From Amoebophrya sp. A120 (Eukaryota > Protista > Dinoflagellata), in the NCBI GenBank assembly GCA_905178155.1, contig CAJINV010000002.1:11138634-11202633 (forward strand): a stretch of DNA of 64,000 nucleotides, in the 5' to 3' direction. Numbering within the stretch: the stretch's first letter is position 1; each line of letters opens with the position of its first letter. Under the pieces are notes generated by a model. The model was not told where the DNA came from and did not search any database. It saw only the letters and a list, made by a program, of their open reading frames with translations. Of this stretch, positions 12,891-64,000 are shown piece by piece. The position numbers and the translations under genes were made by a program.

Positions 12891-12934
12891 TATTTGAGAC
12901 GTTTATGGATGAAATTTTTCTTCGTGAGAGTCTA

Positions 12935-27412: not shown

Positions 27413-30400
27413 GTGGACAGCACCAACGCAGCGTCCAATGTCATCTCGACCGGCGAATCCGAAGTCAGGCAAGAACGTGCGTCCTCGGCAACTGCAAAAC
27501 GCGTTGCATCGCGGTCGTCCACTTCCGTCGCTTCGAGCCTGCTACAGGAGGAGGCCAGTCCCCTGCTACAAACTTTGACGGTCGCTGGATTGTTCAGCGA
27601 AGCACTCGGCTGCCGCGCAGATTTGGACGCTGACGATTGCAATCGCCGGACTCGAGCGCAGCTCCCGTCCGTCTGTCGTGCTTTTTCCCGGATGGACAAA
27701 AAGGTGTGCGACCAGCTCCTTCCAACAAAGGATGCGTTCTTTGGTGCGGAAGCAGGAGGTCGTCTACTTGAAGAGTTGGTGCATAAACATCGTTTCGAAA
27801 GTAATACGGATCATCTTGATCAAGTCCAACTTGTACGTGCTACTCTGTGCCGCATGCTGCCGAGTATTCCTTGCAGTTGCTGGAAATCGCTGTTGCGTCG
27901 CGAAAGAGGTGTTGCGTTTTCCTCGCGGTCGCCTTTCCGACAGCAGTTCGTGGAAGATCAGCTGACACGAGAGCAGGGTGAAGCTCTAGACGCACGAGAT
28001 CGAGATCGAGATGAAAGCTCTCACGGCCACGAGGCAGGAGCGTCCACGTCGATGCTGAGTGTTGGTACTGACTTGTTGGCACCACAGGCAGGAGCACAGC
28101 ACTCAGCTGCAAACCGGGGCAACACAATAAACGGCACCGCTTCATCTGGTTTGGGGTTCTTGCAAGAAGGGGAAAGCGGAACGGCCAAAGGAGCAGGAGG
28201 AAGCGGAAACGTTGTGGCGTCCTCTTCTAGTAGTCGCAGCGGTAGGAGCGCAGCACCGGCTCTAACGACTTTCCGTCGCTACTGTCGGTATCACGATCGA
28301 AGTGGGCGCTTCGCAGACACGTCCTGTGGCTTCTTCGTCGACCTGTTCATTGCGACCGAGAGCGAGGAAGAAAAATCATTTCGCCGAAATATTAAAAACA
28401 AAAACGAAACGATGACACCCCAATCTGTCGCAGTGCTACTGGCACACCTGAACGCGCATAGACGAAACCTGTTGCGACAGCACGAGGAGACTGGGTGCTG
28501 TGTCGGGAAAGACACCAACCACCAGCGCTATCGTGTGGCCCGACAGGTACTGGACGATTCCTGTCCACCAGGTAGGACTGCGGACGATGGAGCAGCAGAA
28601 AGTGGCCGCGGTTTTCCCGCTAGTGCCCGTAGTACCAGCAACGCAGCTGGTGTCCCACGCAGTCCGCACAACATCAACAGAGAACGACCGAGCAGGAATA
28701 CTGAAGACCGGAGCACAGAGCTAGATGTAGAAGGCGATCGCTTCTCTTCGCTTACCCTCTGCGGCACGAGGGAGGAAGCACGACAGAGGTTCTTTACAGA
28801 TATCGAAAAGAAAAATCCCCCCTCCCCATATCAAAACGGAATTTCTGATGCTGGATTTGTGTACACAAATCAGCTTTGTATTGCAGGAAGGCACTGCGGC
28901 CAGATCCCCATGCTAGGTAGGGGCGTTTGGGTCTAGTTGTTCAGCATTGCAAACGGCTCCCCTTCAGGCCCGACAGCATGACAAATCGCCACCATGCTAG
29001 GATGGAAGCTTCTGCCCTTGTCTTCTGGCAAGGCACATGTCTGTGATTTGTGACCTGAAATCAGCAACGCAAATTTTCGGAAGCATACCTTTTCCATATG
29101 GGGAGGGGGAGTTTTTCCTTTCGATAACAGATTCCTGTTGTTCGAAGTTGTTGAAGAAAGAACTCCTCGCGCTTGAACATGTTCCTGTTTCTGGAAATCT
29201 TCGAAACGTACCTCTTACGCCTTCACCTTCTCGGCTGCAACCACATCGCCGGGCTTTGCGGAGGTCGGGAGAGTCAAATGCAAATTATGGTGGTCCTCCA
29301 CCTTGCAAGAGAAAGAGGAAAGGGACAAAAAGACAAACAGTAGGGGCCGTAGATGCACATGCACTTGAGTGGGATGCTGCAGAAGCGCTCGGGCATCAAA
29401 AGCAGCATCGGAGCGACGTGAATCCTGGTGGCCCATGCAGCTCTCCCTTCCATGCAGTTAGTGTGCGCCGCGCCAACAAAGATAAAGAACATGATGAACA
29501 TGAGAAATCCAAAAACTCCTCGTACGACTTCCGGCCGTTGCAGAAGTCGCACGACATGCCAGAGAAATCATCATCCCTGCGACGTATTTTCAGTCGAAGG
29601 CCGGTGTGGGTGGCAGGAGCAAGCAGTGGCTCGAGTGATCCACCAACTGCCGTCCATATTCTAGACGGCAGTGTCAGTGCCGCCCATGACTCTAGACGAC
29701 GTGCTGCAGGTAGTTCTCTGGATTCTGGGCAGGGAGATGAAAACTTCATCTACGCGGCGGGTGCAAAAAGTACTGCAAGCGAAAAAGAGGTTCTTCGCGC
29801 GTGGTGTGTCGAATTTCTGTCCGAGTCTGCAATTTTGAAAATGGCGCCGTGTGGGCGTTCTTCTGTGGATGAAGATGAATGGATTCCCATTTTGGAAAAA
29901 ACGCTTTCTGATGGGAGCCTGGAGCGTTTGTGGCCTACCGACGCGGAAGATGTCACGTCGCCATTTTTACGTGTCGACGTGCGGGACGTCCTCGACGAGG
30001 GAGGAGAGTTTCAGGACGAGGATGGGACTTTCGCAACCGAAACCATCGAAGCAGAAGTGGAAGATGCTGTTGCTGGTGGCCCGTCCTCGCGAGCGATTAG
30101 TGATGTTGATGGCGTCCACGGGTCAGGAAGTCATTTTTTATTTGCCCTGCGAGACTCGACCTCGAGCAATCCCCTGCTTTCGTGGATTCTGGCTTTCCGT
30201 GAAATGTCAACAGAGCACTTCGTGAGACTGATGGTGCGAATCGGCGGCCTTCTCACACAGGCCTGCTGCAGAGCGCTTGACGGTGGAAGCGGTTCGAGTA
30301 GTGTAGCTATGCTTTCTCTAGAAGTACATGGCCGAGGCGATGCAGGAGGTGGAGGAGGAGTACAGCGCTCCGACGCAGTAGATGACCAGGCCGACGATAC

Positions 30401-34229: not shown

Positions 34230-37200
34230 ATGGACCTCCTGGACGACCTCTATGGTCGCGCAGGTGCGACCGGTGGCGCCGCGGCTGCTGATCACGATGA
34301 CTACAACCCATATTTAGACCACAACGATAACCCCTATGCGGGGGGTGGAGCCGCAGCTGCCCTGCCACGATACGACGAGAACCCGCTTCCGGCCTCAAAT
34401 CCATACCAGCAGCAAGGAGACGCGCTCGACGCAAATTATGGCTCCACGGCGCTACCGGATTACATGACCGGTGACGGTCACGCTGGCGGACACCACCCGG
34501 GCCAGGATACAGCCCCTGGCCACCATCTGGCCAACGACAACGTGCTCGAAGCCATCCAGAGTCACCGCATCACCTCTTCTGCTTCCTCGCCCAGCGCCGC
34601 CGCCGCGGCGGCTCGGCCACCACCGGCAGCCAATTCCATAGAGGAAACGCCGATTCAGCCGCGGGCGCCGGCCGCAATCACGATTCCGTTCACATCGAAC
34701 ACGAACAGCGGTTATGGAGGTAGCTCCTCGTCAACGGCGAACCTAAACCCTAAACCCAACGCGGACTCGACGAAGTCGTCCAGCGGGCCGAGCAGCAGCA
34801 CCGCCACCAGCGGTAAAAACGTGGTGAAGCGACCGTTTTTAAAGAGAGGCGCACGAAACCCTGTGAGCACCGAGAAGGATTTTTTGTCAAAAGCCTCCAC
34901 CCAGCGCGAAGAAAAGACGCCCGGCAAGCAGCGTCCGCCCGCAGCGAACGTCACGCCCGTGCGCTCGGCGCCCAATGATGGCACGCGAGACAGCAGTCGT
35001 CGAAGCAACGCCGTCGCGTCGGATCGCGATTTATTTGAAACCGCTTCAACTTCGCGAGACGCCGACGCTGGTGGGGGAGGTCCTTCCACAACTGGAAGTG
35101 TCGGAACTAGGAACCGCTCGAGTGGTTCGAACGCAAATGCAACACTGTCGGGTAAGAAGTCAAATTGTTTGCATTGCATCGGTTCGTTGTTTGAGGACGT
35201 GGCACTAGTGATGAGATGTAAGTAGTGCCATGATCATGAAGAAGATGACTGCAATTTCAATGATGCAAACCGACAGCCCCACGAGAGACCGCAAAAACGC
35301 TAGCGAGCAAAAAGTTTTTTGCCGAGCGGTACGGAAACAACAAGAAGCCGCAGCCCGGGGGCCTGAAGCTGGATTCGGCGGAGCTAGGAGGCGAGTCGTC
35401 GTCGGCCAGCGAAGGGGGAAACCAATACTCCTCAATTCGAATCGTCGACCGTGAGGCCCATGCTTCCGAACTTCCGGATCCGGTTCAGCTCTTTTTTGGA
35501 CGACATCTTGTCCTTTGTATAGTACTTATACTTACAACGGATCATGGCATGACGTCACAGAATAGAAAGTGCGAATTCTCATAAATATGAGTGACAAGAA
35601 AATTAAGATTATGGACAAGTGCGAGCAATTACAATGTCGGCAGATAAAGCCACTGCGAGCAATTGATTGACAATCATCTAAAAGTAGCATAATACCCAAC
35701 AGGCTCAGAGTGACCTTCCTTCGGTGGAAGAGCAGGACGGCGAGTTCGATGCCGAGGAAGATCTTCGAGGCGATTTTGACGAAGATGACGAACCGCCCGT
35801 GTCCTCATTTGTGAAAAAGCACTTCTACAGCAAAAACAAACCCCCAGGGGCGCATCAAAAGCCGAGTGGCAAGGGCGCGGCGACATCTGCTTCTTCAACC
35901 TCGGGAGTATACTCGAATGCCGCGACCCTTTCTGGAGCTGCCCTGGGCGTTTCCGCGTCTTCTGTCTCACCGGGGGCAGACCACGGCTTCGAAGACCACG
36001 TAGTCAACTACGTGGTCGAGAAGAAGCAAGGCGGCGCTGCCGGTAGTGCGCTGGCGGCCGCCGCTGCGTTCGAGAATGAAGTCAACGCCTCCTCCGCCGC
36101 GGCCGACACGCAAACGCGGGAGGACTTAGCGCGTAAGCTGAAGATGCTGGACGCGCAGATCGATCGGTAACAAGAAATGACAAACCGTACATAATTATCG
36201 ATCTCGCTATGAACATCAATATGAAAGTTCCTTAAAGATGAGGCAGGAGATGATGGCTGCGACAAGCTGAGAGCTCTTATTGGGTGCATGATTTGGTAAA
36301 TTTCAGGTTCAAGCGCGAGAACGAGCAATGCAAGAAGCTGCGAATGGACCGGGAGCACGCGCTCAGGCAGGTTGAGCACGAGCGCAAGAAGCTTCGCGAA
36401 GAGGTCGAGCAAGAGTATGGCCTTCTCAGTTTTTCACATCACTCAAAAGCTACACTTTTCCGCTCGTGTAATTCATTGTCATGCATACGCAGTACCAGTA
36501 CGACCTCCAAGGGGAGCAAACTGTGAGCAAACCCAAAGCCGCGAATGACAGACGTACAGCAACAGCTGCCCAGGGGAACGCTTGCGCTTGCATCTATTAA
36601 TTTAGCAAGAGTTCGTCCAGGGAGACACAGCGCCACGATGCTCAACATTCGCTTTCACGCCTTGCTTCCTTTGCAGGATATACAAAAAAAGTTTGGCAGT
36701 ACTTGGGGCGTGTGACGGCTCGGAAGGTCATAAAGAGCGCGCTGCCATGGTGGCAGAAATTGATGAAGAACGAGAAAAGATGCGCAAGGAAAGGAATCGC
36801 ATCCATCAGGAAAGTACGCATCGCAAAAGTTGTGTCACAAGAAGAACAACACGAACACCAGCGAGCGCTGCATGTTGAGGACAAGAACTTTCCATAAGTT
36901 CTAGGGTACGCACTACACAACCAAGACCATGTTCTCTATCGGGAACGAAATCGACATATTGAATTCCGAACCATAAATGTTAATTGTAGGTGAGCATAGA
37001 GAACAAGTACAAGAATTCCAGGATCCCGCGTCTCGTGTGTACATCGTGAAATTAAAGTGAAATTCTTGCGCAACACTTTTTCACTGGATAAGGAGGGAGA
37101 AGCACCGACAGCAGGTCCAAAGCAGCAAAGCGGATGTGGCAACCAACGAGCAACTGACGAAACAATATGGAGAGTCAGTTATGAGGGTTCTTTCATCACA

Positions 37201-39260
37201 GAAGACACACCAAAGCGCTCAAAGGATTTGGAGTTCTTTAGACGAAAAAGGAAAAGAAAAAACGTGTACGCAAAGGAGCGACTGGCTTCATCTCTCTGTC
37301 TCTTTCAAGAAAACTCTGCAGCAGGCAGTGCGTATTTCTTCTGTTTTGAAAAAATCTTGCTTGCACCTCGCATATGCAACTCAAGGACCTGAAAGAGGAA
37401 ACATCGCAGAAAGAAGCAAGGTAGATGTGGTTACTCGGCAGCGACACCTCATGTGTGGCTGTTGCTTGTGATTCTCTTTTTCCGATGGAATCATGCTGCT
37501 GTATATGTATTGACAAGAGGATGATCATAGTGATTTTCAGGGAACCAGCATGACGCAGCGACAATTGGTAGTGTGCAACTTCTTTGATAAGTAAATTATT
37601 TGTCTTCTTGAAGTCAATCTTCCCTCTTAGGTTCCGCCGCACAATTGAGCGACTCCAGCGACAAAACGACGAACTTCTGAAGAAGAATTCCGAGCTTCAG
37701 GATGACTTGAGCTGGATGAATCGGCAAGCGGAAAAATACGCCGCCAACGCTGGTGGTGGAGGCAGCTCTCCTCCCGAGCGAACTGTACAGTTTGACTTGA
37801 TCATCGTAATTGAGATCTTTTCAAGATGAAAATAAACACAATTCGATTTTCGTGATACAGATATCCCAAAGCAAAGAAAGCAAAAAAGGCCTCGACAATC
37901 TATGTTCCAATCATTCAAAGGTCACGCCTGCGTCCGCTGGAGCGCCAGCAGCCGCGTCCGCGGCCACTGTAGCGCAAAACAGCCCAGCCTTGAGTTCTAC
38001 CGCTGGTCACATGCCTGTTTCGCTGGACCACCAGTCTCACCACGGAGGGACCCCGCAACTCGTGCCAAGCAGCGCGAACAGTACCCCAATGCATCACCAG
38101 CCGGCGCTCACTGCGTCGGCGCAGCACCAGCAGCACAGAACGCTGTCCGCCAACGCGCTGACCCGCCCGGCGCCGCTGCTGGGCTCCAGCGGTATTTTCC
38201 AGCCCGGGATGCGAACCAGCGGCACGAGCGGGCTGGTGCAGCACCAACCAAGCGCAGGACCCGCGAGTGGTGCGGTGGGCAGTCTCGGCCTCAGTGTTGG
38301 CTTAAACTCCTCCTCTACCGCCGCGCTTTTGAATCCCAGTGCCGGGGTCATGCAGATTGGTGGACCAGCATCTACAAAAGTGGGCGCGACCATGACAAGT
38401 TCCTCGGCGGCCACGTCGGGCTCTTTTCACATGCTGAACACCCGCGCAAATCATGCAGTAGCGACGGCTTCTTCAAACTTCGCTCCGCTTCCGTCAAACG
38501 GGACGACGCCTTCTGCATCGAAGACACTGAGCGCGGGCCTGAAGCCAACGGCGGCGGGAGCAAATGCCGGGGAGATGGGCATAAGTCAGGACCTAGCTAC
38601 AGAAATCCTGAAATCGCTACCGGTAATCGACGATAACGTGAAAGATCCCCACGAAATACCCACCGAAAAGATATCTCCAGACGGCCGCGTTGAGCGTATG
38701 TTCCGAGACGGGCGGCGGGAAATTCAGTATTGTTAGTTTCTGATGAAAATGAAATTTGAAATTATTTTTGGGATTCAGATAGGCATAGGAGAAGGAGGAC
38801 CACAAAATTTACATCTTCTGCTTTGGTTTACGCTGATGTCAGTTGTTTTTTTTTGTGAATCATGTTCATGTTCATGATCATGTCCCGCCTGCGCACGAGC
38901 ACGACACCGCTGTGAGGGCCATCCATTTGAAGAAATATACACAGGTTCACGAACGGGCTGAAGAAGGTTTTGTGGCCCGACGCGCGGTGCACTGTTCTAT
39001 TCACGAACGGGGACACGAAGCATTGTCTCGCAGACGGTACCGTGATTTACCGGTACTCCGAGACCGCCGCAACGCAAACCACCTTTTCCACCGGCATCGA
39101 AGTCTTTCAATTCGCCTCCGGGCAAATCGAGAGGCACTTTCCCACCGGGGAGAAAGAAATCAAGTTCGCAAACGGCACGACGAAAAAAATATACGCCGAC
39201 CTGCGCGAAGAAATCCGCTTCCCCGACGGAGTGGTGAAACACGTTGCGCCGAAGAAGTAG
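34230..39260 (+). CDS. CENPJ: SAS-4 / CENPJ (CPAP) centriole protein, about 10 exons
   Basis: N-terminal KRPFLKRG motif (34827-34850), central coiled coil (IDRFKRENE...KEARFRRTIERL) and C-terminal TCP10/G-box repeats (FTNGDTK...DGTVIYRY...QTTFSTGIEVFQFASGQIERHFPTGEKEIKFANGT). Exons approx 34230-35151, 35277-35482, 35703-36166, 36307-36415, 36738-36814, 37096-37165, 37380-37420, 37631-37784, 37921-38726, 38945-39260. Confidence 0.88.
36416..36732. mobile_element. Introner-like TIR element in SAS-4, TSD AAGAG
   Basis: AAGAG|TATGGCCTTC...GAAGGTCATA|AAGAG; removing 322 nt gives EQE-RAAMVAE; adjacent GT/AG pairs (321 or 323 nt) are out of frame. Confidence 0.85.
36815..37090. mobile_element. Introner-like TIR element in SAS-4, degenerate TSD GAAAG/AGGAG
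   Basis: Left end TACGCATCGCAAAAGTTGTGTCACAAGAA vs right end (reverse complement) TATCCAGTGAAAAAGTGTTGCGCAAGAA; removing 281 nt gives HQE-REKHRQQ. Confidence 0.72.
37166..37374. mobile_element. Introner-like TIR element in SAS-4, degenerate TSD AACAA/TGCAA
   Basis: TATGGAGAG...CTCGCATA with inverted TTTCA..ACAGAAGA block; removing 214 nt gives LTKQ-LKDLKEETSQKEAR. Confidence 0.75.
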
Positions 39261-40799
39261 TAGAATGGGAGCCTTTGCCTTTCTTCTCTGGCTGGTGCAG
39301 GCAAGTCCTCATTTTCTTCGACATCTGTTGCAGGTCAGCAGTTGTTTCCGGTGCCGCACAACCGCGACGGCGAATTGTGGTCTGCACAACTTCGACACTA
39401 TTCCGATTGCTCCTGCTACAGATGCTGATATAGCTACTCTGCGCAGTCGGAAGTATTTTGCTCACCCTTAGAAAATCAATACTCCACTCGAATCCCATCT
39501 GCGATTTACTTCAGGGTTTTTGTGCGGGTGAATTTGAATTTAATTTTGTGTGCATGTGCTATAATCTACATCTATTTTTGGCACAACGGAACGTGGACAT
39601 GATTCCGTCGCTCTTTTTTGTAAAAAGGGAAGTTCATGTACATGTTGCTGATCATGCAGACTAGATGTAGACGATGAAATTGATCATGAACTTTGGCGTT
39701 GCGCCTTGGTGCAGTCGCCCTCGCAGCCCAGTGTTTCAATACTCCCGCTCCCCGTGTTTCAACACAGTGGGTCAAAGTACCCCGGGATGAAAGGTCCATG
39801 CAAGGGAGGTTTTGGTATAAGCATGGAATTGGAAACCAGAATTTCATGATGTACCAGAAAACGTAAACGACTGATTTAAATATGCGTTCGAAAGCGATTT
39901 GTGGATTTATTTTTGCAATGTAAAGCTTGAAATAGCATTACAGCATGTGATGAAAAAGGACAGAAATTTATTATCTATGCTTCGATTACGATGCATTGTG
40001 CATCAGCATCTGCTTTGATACGCTGCGCTTCAGTGCCGCATTGTGGAAAAGCGCGGTATTACACGGTGACGCCATCCTTCTGTTTTCGGCATGTATCCAG
40101 ATGCAGGCGCTCCCTCCACTCCTACCGCTACCCATGCTAGTATTTCGTACTAACCACAAAGAAATGAACGTGACGTGGCTTCTGCAGGACCCTACTATCT
40201 ATGTCTATCACAGTATGGAGAGTGATCTTTCGAGCGCGAGAGCCGATACTGATAGATAGATACTTCAATAACGTGTGAGATGTTGTATGTGGTGCAGAGA
40301 AATCTAGTATGTGGTGAAGTACTTTTTGACCTTTTTCTTGAACCGGCCTGCCAGAATTAAAGATTTGCTTCGTAGTTTTCCATTTGCTCCTTCCTGTGAT
40401 GGTACTTTGTTTCCCGGGTAAAGCATGGCTTTACAAAGTAGTTGTGAGAGAATTACGAAGTGGGCTCCTTGTTCGTCGCAGCCAGAAGCAAGTCGAAGAC
40501 CACGGAAGTGGGCTCCAGGTCCTCCATCTCAATTATGAGGTGATTGTCATTCGTTGCAGCTACACGAACACGACCACTGGAACCGCCAATAAATAAATGT
40601 ATGCCCGGGCAGTAGCAGGCTAGCGAGCCTGTGAGTCTAGGCTGAGGCTGGACGGGCGATATTTTATACATGTCCGAGCCTCGCCCTTTTCCGGTAGCCA
40701 GGACAAGATGTTTGTGAGGGTGAACCTCTTCCCGGTCTGGGTTGAAGTTTATTTCCTTTCTCTCTTATCCTCAGGGAGTAACGCCCCTGCCGATGGTAG

Positions 40800-41265
40800 T
40801 AAGTCTGGTCCATCCGCCTCAGGAAAGTGTCTTTTATCCGCTTGTCGGAAAGTCTGGTCCATCCGCCTCAGGAAAGTTTTTTCATCCGCTTGTCGGAAAG
40901 TCTGGTCCATCCGCCTCAGGAAAGTGTTTTTATCCGCTTGTCGGAAAGTCTGGTCTCATCCGCTTGGCGGAAAGTTTGGCGATCCGATTGGCGGAAAGTT
41001 TGGTCTCATCCGCTTGTCGGAAAGTTTGGTCTCATCCGCTTTGCGGAGAGTTTGGTTATCCGCTTGTCGGAAAGTCTGGTCAAATCCGCTTTGCGGGAAG
41101 TTTGGTTTATCCGCTTGGCGGAAAGTTTGGTCGCATCCGCATGTCGGAAAGTCTGGTCTCATTCCGCTTGGCGGAAAGTTTGATCTCATCCGCTCGGCGG
41201 AAAGTTTAGCCCAATCCGCTTTGCGGACAGTTTTGGGCATCTCTGGTTTATCCGTTGTGCGGACA
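40800..41265. repeat. Tandem minisatellite, ~24-26-bp unit ATCCGCTTG(T/G)CGGAAAGT(C/T)TGGT with hairpin core
   Basis: Roughly 19 adjacent imperfect copies of TCCGC...CGGAAAGT. Confidence 0.9.
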
Positions 41266-41859
41266 ATGTTGGCAGCCCTGATTGTATTCTCGTTGACGTT
41301 GGCGATAGCAGCGAGAGTACGGAATCATGCGGTCTCGCCTTGCTTTGGGAAGGAGGGTCGTTTGGCACTGGCGGTTCGAACCCGTTACCCTTGCGAACTT
41401 TTTCCGTCCCAAGCCAAGGCCCTTGGCTTTCTTTGGTGGTTTGTCCTTCGATCCTCTGATCCCATTGCAACGCGAGGCCGCAAGGCTATCGGTTTTCGTC
41501 CGCTCGAAGCTTTCCACTTCGGGTACATGCCACTGGTCGGTCCGTCGTCATCGCTACGCCTTCGTCTATGGGGCGCACCGGTTTCCCAAATTCATCGTCT
41601 GGCCGCAGGCGTCGCGCCGGGTTCTTTGGGCTGCTTCGGCGTACCGGCCTCCGCCGGTGGGGTAGGTGCTTCCAGGGCGCCTCCTCGTGCGACGCAGTGG
41701 GAGATGCTCCCATCGAGCGATCATCCATAGGGTGATCCTTCCGCGGTGACTGAATAAAATAAGCATGGTCTGACAGCACGGTTTGTGAGCAAAACCAAAA
41801 GCAAGAGCCAAACTCGTGATCGTGATCGATACTGAGGAAAAAAAACGACAAATCTTTCC

Positions 41860-48399: not shown

Positions 48400-51300
48400 A
48401 TGAAGCCAACCAAATCGAGTCCCCCTGGACTGCCGTCGGAGCCTGCTTCTTCATCGTCGCGTGGAGCTGCCTTGATGTCCGCGCTGGACATTATGCATTC
48501 CGACGGAAAAGAACATAGCCGGCACGATGAGAAGTTGTCCTTGTCTCGTAGTGCGACTAGCGCTAGCGCTGCAACCACAAGCAAGCCGACCACAGCCCAA
48601 CTGGAGCGCGAAATTTCTGCGAACCAAGAGAGCCTGTATCGCGCACGGATTGCGGGGCCGCTGCGAGCCGACCTTCGTGTGAAGGAGGCGCAGCTAAAGC
48701 ACGTTACTAAGCAGCTGCAAAATGTGCTGAAGGAGCATGAGGATCTCGTTTTCGAGAAAAAGTTCCTGCATGAAAAGTACCACCTGCAGGGGGCTGAGGC
48801 TCGGGAGGCCATTACGAGCTTGCAGCGCAAGAACAAAAGACTCACAGAGCGGGCAAACGGAACAAGTAGCGGTGGAGTTGTGGGCGGACCGGCTGCCGCT
48901 CCGAGTGGAGCAAGAACCACTCCAGACGTCGCTCTTGGTGTTAGCCCACCCTCACCAAATTCTCCAGGAAGGCGGGGTCGAGTCACGTTTCCCACCGCCT
49001 CCGGCCGCGGACCCGCGGGAGCTCGTGGTCTGGGGTCGCACACGGCGAGATCTGCGTCTTTTTCCACGACTACGACGACCACCCGACCAACAGGTCAGGC
49101 ATCTTCATCTCGAGTAAATTTCCGACCCCGCAGCGCGTCCCACGGAGGGACGACCGCTCTAGGAGCTGCAGGCTATAACGATGCCGACAACTTCCTCGAC
49201 GACGATTATGACACTTTTGACGAGGAACAAGCCAATTACGCCGGCACGCAAGAACTACATTTCGGAGGCCAGCATTCGCAACTTCAGGCGGCGACCACGA
49301 GCCCCGGAAGAAGTGGGGGATCCGGATCCTTTCCTGCCGGAAAAGCGGTGCTCAACACGGGCCAGCGGCAGAAACCGAACTGGAGCCGCACCCATCTGCT
49401 GAACCAGCAGCAGATGGCGAAGATGCAGGATGAGTTCAAACAGCTTCTGGCGACGCACGAGCACTACGTCTCGATTTTCACGGATTTGCTGCGGAAAAAG
49501 GATTTTTTGGTGGACAAGATCCAGACGGATTCCTCTCAAGCGCTGCAGCGGATCCAGGAGGACGAAAACGCAAAGCGGATGCGGCTGGAACGGATTTTAC
49601 GGAGCTGTCAGGATTGAAATTAACAAAGTTGAAAGAATTTGTGATGCGTAAAATCTATACCAGTTGGACACACAGTTTCCAATCGGCAAATGACAAATTT
49701 TCCTGGCCTCTGAAGCAAGTCTGTCATGCTGTTTAGGACAAGATGGCTCAGCCATTGGCTGCTCCCTGTCATGCTAGTCAGCTGCCCAATTCTTGACCCT
49801 TGTCAGCACTAGAATCCGCCTCCCTTGCGCCTTCTGCAATAGAGTCAGTCTTTGTGTCGCATTTTATGCATGACAAAGCGTATATTTGTGTTTCAACTTT
49901 GTCGATTTCGAACCTGACACATCCATAGATTTTGGAAGAGGAAAAGCGGCTCATCGAGGCCGAGTGCAGCGCCTTTCTGGCCCAGCGGGAAGTGGAGTGG
50001 GAGGAGGAAAAAAAGCAGATCGACGTGCGCGTCAAGGCTTGGGAGAATGAGGTTGCCCAACTGAAAAAGAAGCTGCAGAACGACCGCGAAGCGCACGTGC
50101 TGGAGGTAGAGCACTGGAAACGGAAACACAGCTACTACAAAGACCGGTTTGGAGAGGCCGAACAGGAGCTGAAAGAACAACTGGACACGGCAAAAAAAGC
50201 GGAGCAGATCGCCGCATCCAAAACCGCGGGCATTGAGGTATAAGTACTTTTCATCTTCATGGTCATCCGATTTCAACAACGACGTTCATACTCAAAGCAC
50301 AGTCGATAGAAGGGTGATATGCACGTTCTTCGTTCTGCATTATTTCATCACGCCGCCTGGAAAAGTTGTGTGCGTTCTTCATTGGATGTGGAGATTGTGA
50401 GCTGAGTTTTTTCTTCCTCGTTTCGCAGGCGAAGTGTCACCAGATCGAGGAGAAGTTACGGCGTGAGCACGGCGAGAAGTTGACTGAAGCCGTGGCGAAA
50501 GAGGCGAAGCGCCAGGACTTGCGGCTCGAGAACGCGCTGTCCGCACTGAAGATCGAGCATGAATCCGAAAAGGTCGATCGCCAGGCGCTGATGGACCGGG
50601 ACAAGCAACAGGCGCTCCGGGAGCTGGACCTGGCCAAAAACATGGAAGCGCAGGAACTCTTGCACCAGAAGGAGGAAGCGACGCAAAAAATGCTCACAGA
50701 CAAGGAGCACGAGCTGGCAGCGGCCAAAACGCAAATCAAAAAGGAGTTCGCGGACAACCTGCAGCAGGCACGCAGGGAGTGGGAAGAAAATCGAAGGAAA
50801 GCCGAGGAGGAAGAAAGAAAGAGGTAAAGACGATTCTTTTGCTGATGCTCATACAACATGTCGCGATAGACAACATGGAGTGCCGTTTAGTAGATTCTTT
50901 TGCGAAAGGAAGATAAAGAACGCAAGCGACATCATCATGCAGTTTTATTTTGTACGAGTGAAAAACTTTGATTTTTTCAAGAAAGTAGTTCTCGTTCTTG
51001 TTTGTTGTGGTAGGTCAGAAGAAGTGGCGCGCATGAAGACGCGGGAGCAGCATTTGGCCATCCAGGAACTAACGGCGCACCACGAACTCGCAATGGCGAC
51101 TGCGCATGGAGACTTGATTGAGAAGGCAGAGACAGCTCGCCGGGAAAAAGACGAAGAGGAGCGGAAGCGCCGGGACTTGGAGCGGCAAAAAGAGGAGAGT
51201 GAGTTCACGCTGCAGAAGCAGATCAAGGAACTGCAACGCCGCCTCAATCTGTGGGTCCACGGCTACGCCAGCGTGAAGCACCTCAAGGTAGCGCAAGAAG

Positions 51301-51655: not shown

Positions 51656-52200
51656 GTCACTTTGTCATTGATCAGCTTCATGATGTTAAGTCAAGGAGAT
51701 CCCTCGAAGGCAAAAAATTTAAAGATTTAGGCGGCTCCTGTGTCTCCACATTTTCCACCGTCACTACAGTAAAATTTGGTTCCGCGCAGTGTCGGCAGAG
51801 CAAATCCAAATCTCCCCTTCTGAGAACACGATCTTGATCCTCAACTAAAAACGATCCAGGGATGTGGTAGCGATCACGTCTTTCGTGATGAGAAGTGAAA
51901 TTTTGTCCGACACGAAATCGCCGTTCCATCTTTCTGATTCAAAATTTAGATCCGCTTTTCATCGCTTGCGCAGATCACAAAAACAAGACCAACGAGGACT
52001 CGTGGTGGCGCAAGACGCAAAGCGTGTTTAGGGAACGAAGTAGTCTGATGTTTCAGGATTTCATGGGAAAAAGCATTTCTGTGCTCTGATAAACAGGAAC
52101 TAGCGATTTGCTGTACTTGCACTTTGGTTGCAAGCACTTTGCACTTGGAATTTCTCTTCCTTACTGAGTCGTCGTTCTTTTGCGACAAAAACCTGGCAAG

Positions 52201-55200
52201 ATGGCGGAGACCTTCGCATTCAACGCTGATATTCAGCAGTTGATGTCCTTAATCATCAACACCTTTTACTCCAACAAGGAGATCTTCCTGCGTGAGTTGA
52301 TTTCCAACGCTTCCGATGCGCTGGATAAGATCCGCTACGAGTCCATCACGGACCCGGAGAAGATTGAGTCCCAGCCGAACTTCTTCATCAAGATCATTCC
52401 GGACAAGACCAACTCCACGCTGACCATCGAAGACTCCGGGATTGGTATGACCAAGAACGAGCTGGTCAACAACTTGGGTACGCTTTTGCGCTTCACCTTT
52501 TTTTTACTTCCTGCGCGTTTGCCTGGAGCTCGTGATTGTCGCTTCAAGCGACTTGTTTTCAGATTCTTTAAATTGCCTATGACTGCTGGACCTCAAGCAT
52601 CAGGCGAAGATTGTGATTTTGTCGTTTGTTTTTTGTTGTATGTGCCCTCATCAAGGAAGCCATTGTGTAACTATTTAATTTACAACCACAGGTACGATCG
52701 CGAAGTCCGGAACCAAGGCCTTTATGGAGGCTATGTCCGCTGGTGGCGATGTTTCCATGATCGGTCAGTTCGGCGTGGGTTTCTACTCCGCCTACCTGGT
52801 TGCCGACAAGGTGCAAGTCGTTTCCCGCAACAACGACGATGAACAGTACATCTGGGAATCCGCGGCCGGTGGGTCCTTTACCGTGGTCAAGGACACCGAG
52901 CAGGTGTTCGGTGAAGTCAAGCGCGGAACCAAGATCGTCTGCCACCTAAAGGAGGACATGACGGAGTTCCTGGAGGAGCGCCGCCTGAAGGACCTGGTCA
53001 AGAAGCACTCCGAGTTCATCGGATTCCCGATCGAGCTGTACATCGAGAAGTCCGAGGAGAAGGAGGTATAAATTGTGTCGCGTTTTTCTTTTTTTGCGGC
53101 AAGTTTCAGCTACAGGAGTGAAAATGTTTGCTAGCCAAATCGATCTGAGAAGCCAGTCTGGCAGTCAGCAGGGAAAATATCAATCCGTAAAAATTGTAAA
53201 TAGGTCACGGACTCCGAGGATGAGGAGGAAGAGAAGAAAGAGGACGAGGAGAAGGAAGGTGACGAGCCGAAGGTCGAGGAAGTGGACGAGGAGAAGGAGA
53301 AAGAGGAGAAGGCCAAGAAGACCAAGAAGGTCAAGCAAATCTCCCACGAGTGGGAACAGCTGAACAAGACCAAGCCGATCTGGATGCGCAAGCCGGATGA
53401 GGTCACCAACGAGGACTACGCTGCCTTCTACAAGGGCCTGTCCAACGATTGGGAGGATCATTTGGCCGTACAATTTTTAGTTTATTGATTCACGTGATTT
53501 GAGTCGTGAACGAGACAGTCAGTAATCGTAAAGTGGGCAGTGATATCGATGATTTCTCTCGCGATGCTCATCTTCCCCACGTCTCCTTTGTTCACGTGGA
53601 GACGCGGGTCCTATGCCATCGCTACACCAAAATGGATGTTTCTTCCATGCAAGAGATTCTGAGATTTCGGTGAATCTCTTGTCCATATGGCTTCCGACAT
53701 TTCTTTTGCTACGTATGTGTACTCGTATGGAAACTACCGTGGCTGAAGACGCCTGCGCCATCTACAGATCGTGTAGTAACAAGTCGGCTCGTCTGTGTCG
53801 CTCCACTAAGTATTGATTCGAAGGAGCACCACCTCGAAATGCAACACGATAAGTACTTCTTTGTTGTTTGCAGTTCTCCAAAACTTGACTTTATTGTTTG
53901 CAGTTCTTGCACAGTCAGTGTGAATGTCCGATAATTCCAACATGAACAGGTCAAGCACTTCTCTGTCGAGGGGCAGTTGGAGTTCAAGGCATTGCTGTTC
54001 GTCCCGCGCCGGGCTCCGTTCGACATGTTCGAACAGAAGAAGAAGCGCAACAACATCAAGCTGTACGTGCGCCGTGTCTTCATTATGGACGACTGCGAGG
54101 ACATCATCCCGGAGTGGTTGTCCTTCGTCAAGGGTGTCGTCGACTCTGAGGATTTGCCGTTGAACATTTCTCGTGAGACCCTGCAGCAGAACAAGATCCT
54201 GCGCGTCATCAAGAAGAACTTGGTCAAGAAGTGCCTGGAAATGTTCGCCGAAATCGCGGAGAACAACGAAGACTACAAAAAGTTCTACGAGCAGTTCTCC
54301 AAGAACTTGAAGCTCGGTATCCACGAGGACTCCACCAACCGCAACAAGGTCGCGGAGCTGATGCGTTACCAAACCTCCAAATCCGGCGATGACCTCATCT
54401 CCCTGAAGGAATACGTCGACCGCATGAAGGAAGGCCAAGAAGACATTTACTACATCACTGGCGAATGCGTCGCGGCCGTGGACGCGTCTCCGTTCATCGA
54501 GACCTTGAAGAAGAAGGGCCTTGAGGTAATCTATAGCCTTTTCTTCTCTGTGTTTGGCGCTTCAAATGCATGTGTGATACTAAAAAAAAAGAGCAAACGA
54601 AGATGGAAGAACCATTACCATCGGTAGCGAATTTGGCTTAGCGATTGGTGATCCTGCTGTAGTATTTTGATGACCCACTAACTTCTTAGTCATCCTACGG
54701 TGAAACTCTACTCTCAGGTGTTGTACATGGTTGACCCAATCGACGAGTACTGCGTCCAGCAGTTGAAGGAATTCGACGGTAAGAAGTTGAAGTCAGTCAC
54801 CAAGGAGGGCTTGGACCTGGAGGACGAGGACGAGAAGAAGAAGTTGGAGGAGCAGAAGGCTTCCTTCGAATCCCTCTGCAAGCTGATCAAGGAGGTGCTC
54901 GGCGACAAGGTCGAGAAGGTGATGGTCTCCAACCGCGTCAGCGAGTCTCCGTGCGTGCTGGTCACTTCCGAGTACGGCTGGTCCGCCAACATGGAACGTA
55001 TCATGAAGGCCCAGGCGCTCCGCGATTCGAGCATGACCTCCTACATGGTCAGCAAGAAGACCATGGAGTTGAACCCGAACCACGCGATCATGAAGGAACT
55101 TCTCGCGAAGGCCACCGCCGACAAGGGTGACAAGACGGTGAAGGACTTGGTCTGGTTGCTCTTCGACACGTCCCTCCTGACGTCCGGCTTCAACCTCGAC

Positions 55201-55353
55201 GAGCCGACCCAGTTCGCTGGTCGCATTCACCGCATGATCAAGCTCGGCCTGTCTTTGGACGATGACGAGGATGAGGCGGATGAGGACTTGCCGCCGCTGG
55301 AGGAGGTCGAGGGAGCCGACGCAGAGGCTTCCAAGATGGAAGAGGTCGATTAA
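52201..55353 (+). CDS. HSP90: Cytosolic heat shock protein 90, 5 exons
   Basis: [68 protein letters not shown] and C-terminal MEEVD. Exons 52201-52477, 52692-53065, 53204-53467, 53950-54525, 54718-55353; all four introns GT-AG. Confidence 0.99.
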
Positions 55354-56513: not shown

Positions 56514-59500
56514 ATGGTAGCGACCTCGAAGTCGAACATGACTCCGCGATCCGGAAAGGTGTCGTTGTTGACCGGCGATTCGCACACCATTACCGGCGTG
56601 GATATTTCTATTTTGAACCCCCCAGGGCCAGGGGGCGGCTCCGGTGGAGAAGCGGAACGCACCGACAAGCTTAGCGCAGTGTCTTCGACCGCGAATCCCG
56701 ATTTCCCTAACTCGAGCGGCTGGAGCGACGGTCTACAGGGACGCGTGGGTAGCCAGAGCCACCAGCATACTATACCTATGCGGGAGCATCAGAAGATCTT
56801 GCTAGGCCGTGACATCGTAGTTCGCGCTGGAACCGCTGCTGAGCGTCGACATTTTGGAGCGATCTTTGGCGAGCATTGTGATGGAGGAATCATCGATAAT
56901 TGTGCGACAATCTGGTGCGCAGCCTGCGGGCGGGTGTGGTCGCGGGATGTTGTGCGGGAGCCGACGGCAAGCTTATTGCATCCTCGGTACGCTTCGGAGA
57001 GCGCGAACCTCTTCGATGGCCTGGGGAAGCCCGTGCAGGAGAAACTCAATCATCTCGCAGGCGCCTTTCTGACGAAGCCGCAGATCATAGGGAGAAGCCC
57101 CTTCGCGCCTGCCACAGAAGAGGCACAATGTCTCGCTGACGCCAGGGCCCTGTTCGTCACCGTGGTAAACCCGCTCGGTCTCCTTGTGCCTTTGGCCTGC
57201 GTCAACCGCTTTGCACCCGCCGTGACGCCGGCGCTTGCAGGAAACACCTCGCCGCGGTCCTCGAGTTGGTTTCGCGGTTATACGTCAAGACCATGCCGCT
57301 GCCCCTGTGGCGTCTTTGTCGGGTGGCAGTTGGAGGAAGAGCCGCCGCGGCACGAAGGCGCCTCGTCGAAGACCGATAGCGAATCTGGTCTTCAGACATC
57401 ATCAACAGGAAACGCAAGGTCCAATCTGTGGGAACAGGTTTCGCGTCCATTGGTATTTCGGACGACAGGCGAGGAAAGCTATGCGCTTCTCAGCAGCGGT
57501 GTGGGACCGTCGAAGAAGTATGGAGAAGCCGAATGCCGCATGTATGCAGCTGGTAGTTTTCCGAATGCGCCTATTGGCACGAAAGTTGTCGCGGGGTCGT
57601 GGTCAGGAACAACTCCTGCCTCCTTGGCGTTGACGCAATCCATACTGCAGTCTGTTGCGGTGGAGCGTAGCGAGCAGCGAACATTGTCTAATGTTGCCGA
57701 AACATCCTCTAGTGCTGATCCTTTATCTTTGCAGACGAAGTCGAAGGCGCTACCTGCAAGCAACGCAGCTGCGGCGTTTCCTTGCAGTCTGGGGCAAGCG
57801 CGGCAAGGCACAGCGGCACAGCAGATCCTGAAACAGGCACCGCAGGTCACGAGTGGTGGAGTCACGGAATCAACAACGGAAAACCGAAAAAACGAAGCTA
57901 CGCTCGCAAATCAAGATGCGGCAGACGCTGTCAATGTGATGGAGAGTGGCAACGTTTTGCAGTACGCAGGCCGCAGTGCGGACAAATTGCCCCCCTCCAG
58001 TGCTAAACGACCCATGCGGCGGCCCCCGCCGCTGTTGCTCCATGCTGACAGCGGAGAAGAGCAGTCGCCGAGCTCCGTTGGTGCAAGTGCGCCAGCCGAT
58101 ATGGATACAACCTCCACCGTCGATGCGAAAACACACGTCGGCGGACTTCCTTGCGTTCTGCTGCAAAGTGAAAGTATTGATCGACGACCTCATCGTGCTG
58201 TCAGCGAAAACAAGGCGACAAAAGCGCAGGTCGTCGCAGATACGGAGGAGACAACTAGAAGACTCGGAGTGTTAGCCAGCGGAGTCGAGTACAACGGAGC
58301 CAAAGGAGGTACTGAAGAAACTGCGGCTCCAAACGGTTCCTGTACAACCCCATTGGTTCCGAAGATTAAACCAGACACGGAAGAAGTCGAGCGAGCAGCC
58401 CCAGGAACTCCGACATCGAAGACGAAGCCGAAGAACGCTAACGGTAATGCAGCAGCTAGAGCTGCGCCAGCTCCATCGTTGTCATCGCGTGCGCGTCCGC
58501 GCGCTCGCCCAACAAGTGGCATCCGGCGCCAGATGCAGCGCGTGCTGGCAGCCGGCGCGATTGATGTCGGGGTAGCGCCCTCGTCGATAACAGCGGCTCA
58601 CAACACTAGCACAGGTCCTAGTAATTCTGCGACCGCAAACGGATCTGCACCTGCCCGGCACACGCAACACAATCGGGCCGTCTCTACTTCGAGTGCAGCT
58701 GTTAACGAAGGAGCCTCCAATGCGAAAAAGACGAAGTCAGCAAATAACGCTGCGCTCGAAGCAACTGCAACTAGTTCAGTTCTATCGACTTCGGCGTCTG
58801 ACATTCGCACCAAGTTGCGGACGCTGCTCTTCGCAGGAGCGCCGCCCGACGGTCGCCTGCCGAACGAACCTAATGGCCCTCCCTTGGCCCCGCAGCAACC
58901 GGCAATTGGGCGTGGACAGAACGTAGAGGGTGACAGGAACCGCGACATGACAGGTAAAGAGAAGCTGTGGGATCCAGGCTGCGTGAGATCACCGGAAAGG
59001 TCAACATTAGGAACTAAAGTAGCGACATGCTCTGCGCAAATCGCTGCTTCATCATTCAGTGGAGTGACATCAAGTTGTGAAGCCACATTTCAAGAAAGCC
59101 ATGACTGTACTACGCTGCCTTCGGAAGTGGTGCCTCCACCGATGAACCCCATCGCTTCTACTTCTGGAGCCCCGTCAGCGTGGCTCGGCAAGGAACCTTC
59201 GGTCCAAGATTTGCATCTCTTCAACGTTGCGCCCCCCACTGGAAGATCGATGCCGGTATCTGCAAGAGATCACAAAGTAGGAGGCCGCACTCCCAGCAGT
59301 GCCATCGGAGATTCGGGTGCTGTGCTTTTCCTAAACAAGACGCGGCGCTCCTCCGCTCTCATGCAAAGCCCGACGCCCGGCGCCTTCGGGACCACGAAGA
59401 CGAATGTCAAAGCGTTTCCTTCTTCTAGTGCCTCATCCTCTACTTCGTCCGCGCGTCTAACGAGGCGCTACACGACTGGTGGAAGCCATCTGTATCAGAG

Positions 59501-61376
59501 ACAAGTGACAATGCAAATGGTTCTTGTGGTGCTTGATCAGAAGGTAGAGGTAGTACAGTTGACACTGATTCTTGTAAAATCTCACCGTCGATGTCGAACT
59601 CGAAAGGGAACGCGAACGGTCTGATAGTCTTACTGTATTGCTACTTCACGGGTCTTGGGCGAGGCCTTGTAGCACCACGAGCACGAATTGCGTAGAAGAG
59701 TGTGATCATGCATTTCATTCGTCCTCCTGGTATACTTGGCTATCCTCCCCCGCTTTCGGCACTCCGACCACCAGATCCAAGCTGGAGCGCAGCGCCGCCC
59801 TTGCCACTAGTTGCGGCTCACCCGGCGAGAAAAAGAGCGACCACATGCGGCTTGAGCTCGCGCAGTACGATCTGCACGCGACGACCAAGGCAACAGCGAA
59901 CGCGAGAGCGGGAGCGGGAGCGCCCTGTTTTATGTCGCAGCGAGTAACAACAACATCTCCTCTCACTCCGGGTCGCGGCGGAGCCGTGAAGAATGACAAT
60001 GAAGATGAGTCAACGGAAACCACAAATAATCCTGACGAAAGCGTCAGCATCTTGACGACAGCTGGGTGCGTCCTAGCAGAGACCGAAAGATGCATCGCAG
60101 ACACGGAAAAGTGCATCGCTGACATCGAGTTTACTTTCTCTGCGCCTAGTGAACAGGGTACGCCTGCGACTTCCTACCTTTTTGCTGCATCTGCAAATTC
60201 ATCTGCGGCCGCACAAATGCTTGCGCCGAAGCAGCGGGAAGCAGGCACACATGAGGTATGATGTGCCGGTGGAGCATATTAATGTTGCTATGGTATTGGT
60301 TTAGGTCTAGAAGATGATGATGAAAATAAAGTCCTCTACTAGTCATCTTCGCGAATAACTCCGACGTAATTTCGCAATTTCCGTAGAAGCAGTTACAACA
60401 GTCATAAAGATCTACTTTCTCCGCTCAGTTGTCCTGCCATCGTTTTTCACAGGACAACCGCACATCAAAGGAGCGACCACCACCTGCATCTTCTACGCCT
60501 ACCAGCCCTCCTGTGGCTGCGCAGCACCATCCACGAGGACGGACAAGCCAGTGCGATCATGCCACGGACGAGCGTAGTTTTCTTGCACGGGCGTCCTTGC
60601 ACATGCTGCAGCATCACGCATCAAGCTCGGGCGACAAGGACAACGAGGTTCTTGGGAAAAAAACGCGTCATGTGAAGGCACCCACGTCGTCCTCCTTGTC
60701 AGAAGTAGACGCAAACGGAGTTCGGGCGCAGCAAGATAAAGGAGAAGCTTCTATCGCTTGGCAGCGGGGCAATTCCCGCTGCTCTCCGTCATCATCACCC
60801 AAGTCGTTCTTGGGAGGCCAGCTTCTGCAAAACGAAAGCAAGAACAACAACGACGGGACAGCGGCAGGGTCACGCTCACGTAACGCCCCGAGTAGCAGGT
60901 CTTCTCCCGGTTCTTGTGCACCTCTCCTGGCAGCGGTATCACAGTTGAAGAAAAGCTACGGGCTTTCCGCCGGTCTGAAGGCTGGCGTGGCTACTCCGGC
61001 TTCTGCGAAGAAAACCACGCGCCCACACGATAGTGTTGATGCAAAGAGCAGACCTTCCTCGACCACGGGGGAAGACGTAGTTCAGGCTCTGTGGCAGCCG
61101 CCGGCACTACCTGCCACCCTCTCGTCCGAACGCCCACGGGTACACGAAAGTCCTCTAGTAGTTCAAAGCGCTGCCAGCAAAAATGGCGTCGCAGGAAGCT
61201 ACTTGTCGATGATCGCAAATTCGAAGCGTCGGTACATGCCGTCAAAGCAGAACGGTCGCGGCTCCGGAAATTCTGCAGGAATAGGCGCGGATGGATACGA
61301 GAAGAGGAAGGGAAAGGGTATTACGGCAACGATGGAACGGACCCGGCACACTAATACACAAATGTCAAAAGAATAA
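56514..61376 (+). CDS. Large low-complexity protein with N-terminal cereblon CULT/Yippee-like Zn domain
   Basis: IWCAACG...VVNPLG...SSWFRGYTSRPCRCPCGVFVGWQL; in-frame introns ~59492-59627 and ~60256-60452 join ORFs 56514, 59638 and 60429. Confidence 0.65.
59493..59626. mobile_element. Possible old introner now bounded by GT-AG
   Basis: ATCTG|TATCAGA...TCTGATA|GTCTT; both 139-nt TSD-type removal and 136-nt GT-AG splicing keep the frame. Confidence 0.45.
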
Positions 61377-62369
61377 GGAGCTCAGCTGGCGAACCCCACG
61401 GAGTCAACTAAGTATGTATTTCTAGTGCGAGTGCGGCGCTGCCTTTTTGTTTTTGCGAAAAAAAAAAACTATTGCAGCTATAGACTTCGTCGAACAACAA
61501 CAAGTCACGACCACTCCATCTTTTTATGTCTGAAAGTTTATTTTCAAAAGCATAGCCCCACAAGTGACAGAAAATCAATAACGTACATCAAAAACAATGA
61601 AACTAGAAGAGACAAACTACGTCGAAATGCACTTTCCGTCGTGCAAAACGATCGGAGAACAAGAGAAGTCAAAATCAAAGAGTGCATTCACTTTAGAGTA
61701 AAGGAACAAAAAGAAAACAAGAGGAATACACAGCAACTCCAAAACCAAAGCCAACTCATGCTTGCGATGAAGTCAGATTGCACACGGATTGGCAGTTCTT
61801 GTTCTTCGTGTTCCTATGCTTGAAAAATACGCACCAGTCCTTATGCGCTAGTTGCGAAATGGATAAAAGGCCGCTATTTTCGTAAGCCGACCTATTCCGA
61901 GAATTTGTACGATCTTAATCTTATGCTGGGCATGTCATGAATGTATCTTTAACGCGAAGTTCAAGTTTAAAGTATTGCTTCGTCGCTTGATGTTTTCTGG
62001 TTGCGGTATGCATTCTGAATGGTTCGTCTCAGTCCTCGTTGGTGTTGGCCGAGCAGCTCCAGGTCGTGTTGCTCAATATACGTTTGCCTCTTGCCGACAC
62101 CGAGCTGTGCCTTTTGTGCTTGAATTGTTCTACTTCATTTAAAAGCGCCAACGGTCAGCATTGCATTGCTCGAGTTCTTTTAATTCGCTTCTCCTTCTAA
62201 GTACGGTTGTTCTACCTAGTAGCAGCAGCAGGTGTAGGAGTAGGTCAGCTTCACGACCAAGAGCACAGATCTTTCACCAGGAACTCGTTGTTCTGCTTCT
62301 GTTACTCTCAATCTCTTTGTCTCAGTAGTTCCCTCGTGTGCTCGACACAACTCAAGCAACGACCAGAAG

Positions 62370-64000
62370 ATGGCTCCCGCTGTTTCCACCATGCTGTCCC
62401 GCAGTAAGCGAGGCTTGTTTTCTGCAGCGTTGCTCGCCGGAGCGACCACAGCTGCTCCGGTCAAGAAAATGACGGCGGTGATCAAAATTCTGGAGGACAT
62501 GCGGGACGAGATCGAACACGACCAAGCCGAGGACGAAAAATCGTATAGAATTTATTGTCCTCGTGGTCCCGTCGGTCATGTGCGGAGCTCCTTCCTGGTG
62601 CAAAAACAAAAAGTTCAAGTTGTACAAAACTCTGAAGCCGAATTCGATTGATTTTGTTGCTGACACGCAGCAAATACATAGTTGAATAATTATGGCTTCT
62701 CGAGCGCCACATGAAACAAACGACCTAGGTACGCCAAGATGGAGTGTTGGTGCAAGAAGAACGACATGACCTTGTCGGAAGCCCAGGCCGCGGCGCAGGC
62801 GGAGTTGGAGCGGTTGCGCGCGAGCGTGACGGCCAACACGGCCGAGGCCGCGGCGCTGGCGACCGAGTTGGAGGGAATGGAAAAGGAGCTGAAGCAGGCG
62901 CGCGAGTCGCTGGACGAGCTGATCACGATGAACACGAAGCAGGTCGAGGAATATCCAGGAAAAAACACCCATCCACATCCAATTTGTGACGCAAAACACA
63001 TATCGATATCAAATCACTTCGTGTGTTTGTAATGCAAAAAATGGATGTGGATTGGTTTTTTTCTGTGCATAAGGAAGATGGGAAGACCGTAGCCGAGTAC
63101 ACGGAGTCCATTACCGCCCTCGCCAACGCCCTCACCGTTATCCACAGTAAATTGCCCGTACACGTACCAATGCAGTCCCAGTCTCTGCATGACAAAACTT
63201 GCCTTCAATCCTAGTCTAGCATGACAAGTTGGACACTGCAAGTTAGCGAAATTTGTCATGCATTTTGTACATGTGCGGGAAATTTACATTGCATATCCGT
63301 TCTGAACAAGCACCAGCCGGGGCTGACGCAGAAAAAGGTGGTCTTGGAGCTGCGCAAGCACGTGTCGGCGCACAGCGACATGCTGGACGCGCTGCTCGAG
63401 CCCAGCCAGCGCCGGGAGCTGAACGCCTTCCTGCAACAGGACACCCGGCAGAACCAGAAGCAGAACCCGACCAGCCCGGCCTACTCCAGCCAGTCCGGGC
63501 AGATTTTCGGGATCCTCGCCCAGATGAAGGAGGAATTCGAGTCTGATTTGGCCACCCTGAAGGAGAAGGTGGCCTCAGACAAGGTCACCTACAACAAGCT
63601 GAAAAAATCCAAGGAGGAGGGCATCGCCGACCTGGAGAAGGGCATCACCTCGAAAACCAGCCGCAAGGCGGACGCCAAGCAGGAGGCGGCCGACGCCAAG
63701 CAGCAGATCGCGGACATCGAAAAGACGATGGCAGCCGATCTGGAATTTCTCGCGGAGGTGAAAAAAGTGTGTCCGAAATCCTCCGAAGAGTTTGCGAAGC
63801 GCACGGAGGACCGACACATGGAGTCGCAGGCTATCGACAAGGCGGTCGAGATTCTGGGCAGCGACGAGAACCGCGACTTGTTCGACAAAACCGTGGAAAA
63901 GGCGCCGGCGCTCGCCTTTCTGCAGACGGGCATGATGAAAAATTCCAAGGAGGTGGCGAGCAAAGTGGTGCAGAATCTGGTATTTCCATGTATGAACAAA
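62370..64000 (+). CDS. Dinoflagellate-type coiled-coil protein with N-terminal hydrophobic leader (partial, runs off the window)
   Basis: Motifs VIKILEDMRDEIEHDQAEDEKSYAKMECWCKKN, ALTVLNKH, YSSQSGQIFGILAQMKEEFESDL and AFLQ. GT-AG intron 62543-62728 plus two TIR-type introns. Confidence 0.8.
62952..63071. mobile_element. Introner-like TIR element, TSD AGGAA
   Basis: AGGAA|TATCCAGGAAAAAACACCCATCCACATCCA ... TGGATGTGGATTGGTTTTTTTCTGTGCATA|AGGAA; removing 125 nt gives KQVEE-DGKTVAEY; can be written as GA-AG intron 62949-63073. Confidence 0.85.
63139..63295. mobile_element. Introner-like TIR element, TSD ACCGT/TCCGT
   Basis: TATCCACAGTAAATTGCCCGTACACGTAC ... GTACATGTGCGGGAAATTTACATTGCATA; contains an in-frame stop; removing 162 nt gives ALTV-LNKH. 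Confidence 0.88.

Follow-up and report, generated by a model that had tools for sequence, protein, structure and literature searches.

A probable fixed cut position, one nucleotide before TAY and four after ATA, in transposon-like introns of Amoebophrya sp. A120

A 64,000-nucleotide stretch of the dinoflagellate Amoebophrya sp. A120 (assembly GCA_905178155.1, contig CAJINV010000002.1, positions 11,138,634 to 11,202,633; hereafter the window) carries genes interrupted by elements that begin with TAY and end with ATA. These inserts are almost certainly introns of the introner type of this organism, and the cut is very probably fixed 1 nt before TAY and 4 nt after ATA, designated as N|TAY...ATA NNNN|. 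The published A120 introners, with which the inserts had already been linked, are the same elements: inverted repeats starting with TAT, followed by variable bases and a run of A, which form a hairpin, have RNA support and number 29,850 copies (Farhat et al. 2021, PMC7789003). Their direct repeats are given as 3–5 nt, with a 5-bp example in the legend of Fig. S19, and their borders are called “variable” or “unknown”. In the present window, with the same organism and elements, a single register (-1/+4) accommodates every joint, old copies without recognisable repeats included. The element class is thus already known, and the added value is a precise and testable cut rule.

All eight inserts of the original prediction were found at the positions it gave, on the plus strand. 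Six of them start with TAT and two with TAC (36815–37090 and 49598–49927), all end with ATA, and the interiors are mutually unrelated (best E-value 0.016), as had been described. The 5-bp flanks are perfect in four, 28801–29126 (ACAGA), 36416–36732 (AAGAG), 49598–49927 (GATTT) and 62952–63071 (AGGAA), and match 4/5, 3/5, 2/5 and 2/5 in 63139–63295 (ACCGT/TCCGT), 37166–37374 (AACAA/TGCAA), 36815–37090 (GAAAG/AGGAG) and 43050–43393 (CAGTC/CTGGT), respectively. Terminal inverted repeats (TIRs), ascribed to every insert, hold for some; the ends of 36815, 37166 and 43050 pair no better than shuffled ends, with end-duplex z-scores of -0.5, -0.8 and -1.4, respectively. Deletion of the element plus 5 nt opens the reading frame in all five genes, as claimed, but deletion of +2 and mostly of +8 opens it too. 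Frame alone cannot tell +2, +5 and +8 apart, and RNA is therefore needed. A strict scan for TAY..RTA with a TIR score of at least 14 and a target site duplication of at least 4/5 gave five matches in the window, and all 30 shuffled versions of it were free of matches. The matches were four of the eight inserts and a new element at 44475; the other four inserts fall below the cut-off. A looser scan of the window for TIRs and duplications was overwhelmed by chance matches. One candidate at 11593–12077 was rejected, as its duplication matches 1/5 and it belongs to a local repeat.

Removal of exactly the element plus 5 nt was fixed by RNA at all seven joints observed. Contigs of four runs taken to be RNA (X1–X4) join GT-AG introns, while those of a DNA-like run (X5) do not. 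Four of the eight inserts have direct joints: the introns 43049–43397 (43048->43398, in X1 and X4 and absent from X5), 49597–49931 (49592->49928, in 4/4 runs), 62951–63075 (62946->63072, X4) and 63138–63299 (63134->63297, X4). No joint was seen in X5, whose contigs continue through five elements; this DNA control covers the first of the two transcript mappings, and the second mapping is without one. For the introns 36415–36736, 36814–37094 and 37165–37378, which lie in a SAS-4-like gene, removal is supported by exon length and by an annotated protein. Between 36165 and 37921, one X4 contig retains 452 nt, as expected from removal of the element plus 5 nt at all three introns. Each of two exon queries matched one 100% identical Amoebophrya sp. 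A120 protein. One of these (P0002), a SAS-4-like Tcp10_C protein according to Pfam, agrees with the spliced product across all three junctions. The other (P0001) agrees over 1435 residues spanning the junction of the intron 28800–29130, whose removal is supported by this protein only; no joint was listed for it, and the low coverage there is not evidence against removal. Because P0001 and P0002 lack the four inserts, the public annotation already treats those four as introns. A predicted last intron of the SAS-4-like gene was discarded as out of frame with P0002, which leaves the elements unaffected.

Three further introns were found from RNA, all of which are TAT..ATA elements on the plus strand removed with 5 nt; the probability of TAY and ATA at these three pairs of borders by chance is ~1e-9. 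The intron 40599–41760 contains a 1157-bp element (40600–41756, flanks AAATG/AAATA; joint 40594->41757 in X4 only) and likely lies in the 5' leader of the gene at 41860. The other two, with flanks matching only 2/5, are decayed: 44151–44375 (element 44152–44371, TTTCT/CTGTT; joint 44150->44376 in X1 and X4) and 59492–59738 (element 59493–59734, ATCTG/CTTGG; joint 59491->59739 in one X4 contig with a depth of 3 and a side of 29), whose removal opens a frame of 1536 amino acids. Retention of 44152–44371 would keep the frame without a stop (685 versus 610 amino acids), yet both RNA runs remove it. X1 contigs enter the ends of the 40600–41756 element, and an unspliced form may exist too.

The register was obtained by intersecting the start offsets that each joint allows. 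These are {-1} for 43050, {-5..-1} for 40600, {-1..+2} for 44152, {-1,0} for 59493, {-5..+1} for 49598, {-5..0} for 62952 and {-4..+1} for 63139, and the only offset common to 7/7 joints is -1, i.e. -1/+4. In addition, P0002 restricts 36815 to registers -3..0 and rules out the mirror register -4/+1 there. In the -1/+4 register, all 11 introns have T+2, A+3, Y+4, A-7, T-6 and A-5, while positions +1, -2 and -1 are unconstrained. The claim that no common dinucleotide boundary exists was therefore wrong, as T+2 and A+3 are shared by 11/11; no GT-AG or GC-AG register yields the same mRNA for any of them (0/11), as had been supposed. We considered and rejected a preferred A at -2, as A stands there in 2/11 window introns and the centre of the duplication is A or T in 8/26 copies of the 28801 family. 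A matching duplication is dispensable for removal, since decayed copies are cut in the same register.

Several points weigh against a fixed register. Only the 43050 junction fixes -1/+4 exactly, and the 40600 and 59493 joints rest on single contigs, which is why we call the register very probable rather than certain. The RNA nature of the X1–X4 contigs is a guess, and the runs, two samples of one study, may not be independent of the public annotation. A protein search with the product of the 59493 gene gave no match. One A120 family is a Mutator element with an 8–9 bp duplication, and the rule is accordingly not universal. In the largest published family, AN ends (6598 of 9716 copies) are as common as NT starts (6681), and a real mirror register may occur elsewhere in the genome. 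However, a model in which borders slide toward the motifs of aligners gives 0.655/0.691 against the observed 0.688/0.679. Because sliding reproduces both excesses, the published tables do not decide for or against the rule, and we dropped the NT starts of Table S4 as proof of -1.

The same register is latent in other published data. Among the A120 rows of Dataset S2 (58/58), fam38 is noted with “5-bp TSD, TA/TA termini” as Ginger-like, and the splice sites of fam56, 74 and 160, three of the five families that have coordinates as well as an automated 5-bp duplication, lie at start-1 and end+4 (PMC12130899). The A120 introner families in that work are mostly TIR DNA elements, and its other rows give 2–6 bp duplications and mixed registers. 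In its available parts, Gozashti et al. 2025 (PMC12130899) do not state the register as a rule and do not address the splicing mechanism. A fixed register was likewise not found stated in the accessible text of papers from Amoebophrya-, dinoflagellate- and Syndiniales-focused literature searches. The logos in Fig. 3 and Figs. S19–S25 of PMC7789003 may nevertheless contain part of it.

The elements form a MITE-like (miniature inverted-repeat transposable element) family whose young members are repeated and whose old members are unique. TAY and ATA termini are present in 12/12 window elements, and a perfect 5-bp duplication in 5/12. The 28801 element is a young member of a family of ~320 bp, and a 29-nt motif from its end matched 33 loci in a metagenome collection, which all carry the same assembly prefix. 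Perfect, variable 5-bp duplications flank 27 of these loci (26 distinct), mostly ~320-bp TAT..ATA elements; of the remaining loci, two match 4/5, one matches 3/5, two are unresolved and one is without a start. A GY..AG reading is possible for only 4/26 copies, even with either orientation tried, and open-frame tests on the family loci suggest that both orientations occur within genes. The depth of X5 at the ends of 28801 and 44475 is hundreds to thousands of times above background (summed depth, not copy number), and 36416, 36815, 37166 and 43050 are at background, like published singletons. The fixed-length variable duplication, the TIRs and the lack of coding capacity expected of a non-autonomous TIR transposon (MITE, Ginger-like) were all found; the longest stop-free frame in the 44475 element is 111 amino acids. 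The 40600 element contains imperfect tandem repeats and a frame of 368 amino acids without a Pfam match. A scan of viral contigs for the 44475 end and an Rfam search each gave 0 matches. The 44475 element itself (44475–45829, 1355 bp, perfect GAGGT duplication, no strand assigned) begins 31 nt inside the canonical intron 44444–46137; its removal would leave 334 nt, so that it is possibly a nested intron. Long inverted repeats occur inside it, and its ends recur in DNA contigs around other interiors. In the flanks of three family loci (L007, L013 and L033), there is sequence similar to the 63139 element, to the end of 44475 and to window positions 10280–10417, which indicates that several families lie close together in genes.

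The original prediction took a terminal stem plus a fixed 5-nt offset, rather than sequence, as the signal. The net 5 nt stands, but the offset splits into 1 nt upstream and 4 nt downstream and TAY and ATA are invariant. The stem as signal was not upheld in the form proposed, for TAY and ATA are kept where the duplication and the long stem have decayed. In whole-intron folding, the probability of in-register TAT:ATA pairing is 0.00 in 4/11 introns (36815, 40600, 44152 and 59493), three of which (40600, 44152 and 59493) are shown by RNA. The predicted stem of 59493 ends 2 nt earlier and the cut is still counted from the last ATA, and a TAC/ATA mismatch is tolerated in two introns. In the family copies, TIR positions 1–3 and 10–12 are invariant in 24/24, and at positions 4–9, 76 of 144 cells pair compared with 80.3 ± 4.0 with shuffled partners, i.e. 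no excess. This test used 24 of the 26 copies (two were dropped as out of register), ignored their relatedness, and concerns copies whose splicing was not shown. Two points argue for the stem: strong end duplexes (z of -3.5 or below) are present in 7/12 elements, while only 1/17 canonical introns reaches a z of -3.0, and folding predictions may miss pairing that is stabilised by proteins. On balance, what lasts as a signal is the pair of terminal triplets with their set spacing, rather than the duplication or a long stem.

How the introns are removed is a separate question, and we consider it somewhat probable that the host U2-type spliceosome does so with relaxed +1, -2 and -1 positions. The elements are non-autonomous TA-ended DNA transposons that insert with a 5-bp duplication, and in such a mechanism their terminal TA would supply U+2 and A+3 of a GUA-like donor. 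N|UAY would be read as a donor without G+1, and the acceptor would be placed four bases past the far AUA, the first A of which (-7) is possibly the branch point. The symmetric ends would make the element spliceable in either orientation, and the 1+4 cut would leave a single target copy and hence an unchanged protein. The long hairpin may be mainly a relic of transposition that could help draw the ends together. The donors are consistent with this scheme. Among 17 canonical introns of the window (14 shown by RNA and 3 inferred), the donor is GTA in 16, with T, A or C at +4 and G at +5 in only 2, and the introner donors are N-T-A-Y in 11/11. Of the six registers that remove 5 nt (-5..0), the one used sets TA at +2/+3. 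A120 retains 83 of 89 spliceosomal proteins, and its U1 small nuclear RNA (snRNA) was undetected (PMC7789003); an Amoebophrya with canonical introns has U1 (PMC12005148). In strain A25, every top border listed opens with TT and the repeats open with TTA, again U+2/A+3 (PMC7789003, section 11 and Table S4).

The spliceosomal reading also faces difficulties. The GU...AG pattern of U2-type introns is absent, with only U+2 and A+3 kept, and the +1/-1 pairs are free (A/G, G/A, C/G, T/T and others). The second step of standard splicing docks G+1 with G-1 and A-2, with which free positions conflict. There is no branch-box consensus ahead of ATA, and a fixed branch A was not found in the 17 canonical introns either (A at -7 in 5/17 and at -8 in 8/17). 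No lariat, branch point or dependence on the spliceosome was observed, and contigs cannot show lariats. Back-joined (circle) joints were likewise absent from those listed in the second mapping, for which contigs are no test either. As TA is self-complementary, the likeness to GUA may be a coincidence. A transposon-derived precedent in favour of the spliceosome is found in Fritillaria borealis, whose majority introns likewise have TIRs and target site duplications and are reportedly removed by the U2-type spliceosome (PMC11282704; bioRxiv 10.1101/2025.08.15.670264). Its borders are AG-AC or AG-AT, the 5' end of U1 is conserved and U2AF is duplicated (PMC11282704), in contrast to A120 with free +1, -2 and -1 and U1 snRNA undetected.

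A different, Euglena-like model keeps the structure-guided excision of the original prediction with the offsets corrected: a separate nuclease and ligase would recognise the paired TAT:ATA base of the stem, with cuts that leave constant overhangs of 1 nt and 4 nt. The free +1, -2 and -1 positions, the complementary end triplets that are invariant in 24/24 family copies, the strong terminal stems folded by young elements and the Euglena precedent of fixed spacers with required pairing (PMC12501133) all speak for it. Nonconventional introns of Euglena share with the A120 elements free terminal dinucleotides, complementary triplets at fixed distances, a longer 3' spacer, slidable borders and a probable MITE origin (PMC12501133). 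Their signature, 5'-N3 CDG..CH'G N5-6|R with CAG/CTG triplets and a purine at the exon start, is not found in the present elements, which have N1-TAY...ATA-N4; and while pairing has been experimentally required and circular products reported there, the A120 elements are known here from sequence and contigs. Since in-register pairing is predicted to be absent from 36815 and the RNA-shown 40600, 44152 and 59493, the cut of 59493 ignores the shift of its stem, TAC/ATA is tolerated and the register puts TA precisely on donor +2/+3, we regard such a machine as unlikely. It is equally doubtful that most introns of A120 (and of A25, if its TT(A) borders share the N|TA...TA NNNN| geometry) are removed by a second, non-spliceosomal machine that counts 1 and 4 nt from a TA-ended stem and is convergent with that of Euglena. 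A hybrid, spliceosomal catalysis with the terminal stem replacing U1 and U2AF in choosing and juxtaposing the sites, would accommodate the undetected U1 snRNA, the young elements with strong stems and the donor-like U+2/A+3. We judge it improbable, as old elements without a predicted in-register stem are spliced in the same register and TIR positions 4–9 show no excess pairing. Finally, there may be no single register, if sites vary around the hairpin and frame selection keeps +5 outcomes only, or if the joints are empty sites in DNA. The fact that 6/7 joints can slide across 2–7 registers, the heterogeneity of the published tables and the variation of sites around the hairpin stated in Fig. 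3 of PMC7789003 are in line with it. Nevertheless, the 40600 joint lies outside the coding frame and still shows +5, no alternative joints are among those listed in the second mapping, the DNA-like X5 is without joints and traverses five elements, and sliding within perfect duplications reproduces the published heterogeneity. We therefore consider this explanation very improbable.

Elsewhere in the window, the Hsp90 gene (52200–55353) has GT-AG introns only, with three joints shown. Its lack of introners fits the remark that core genes carry fewer of them (PMC7789003). Four letter differences in X4 in this region may stem from paralogues. A stop-free frame of 3310 amino acids at 14879–24811 has no Pfam match, and the repeats at 1290–1850, 6000–6900 and 9700–12900 are palindromic tandem repeats of ~17 nt, a GC-rich block, and inverted and direct duplications, respectively.

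Most introns of A120 are non-canonical, and the paper that described them left their borders and the mechanism of removal open. The rule explains how a transposon fills genes without altering their proteins. A fixed code shows experimenters where to seek a branch or circle junction, and would permit the re-annotation of tens of thousands of slid intron borders. If the spliceosome is responsible, it can dispense with the terminal G's and the AG, which are regarded as almost universal. A spliceosome without U1 that needs neither G+1 nor an AG acceptor would, if true, be nearly as striking as a second machine.

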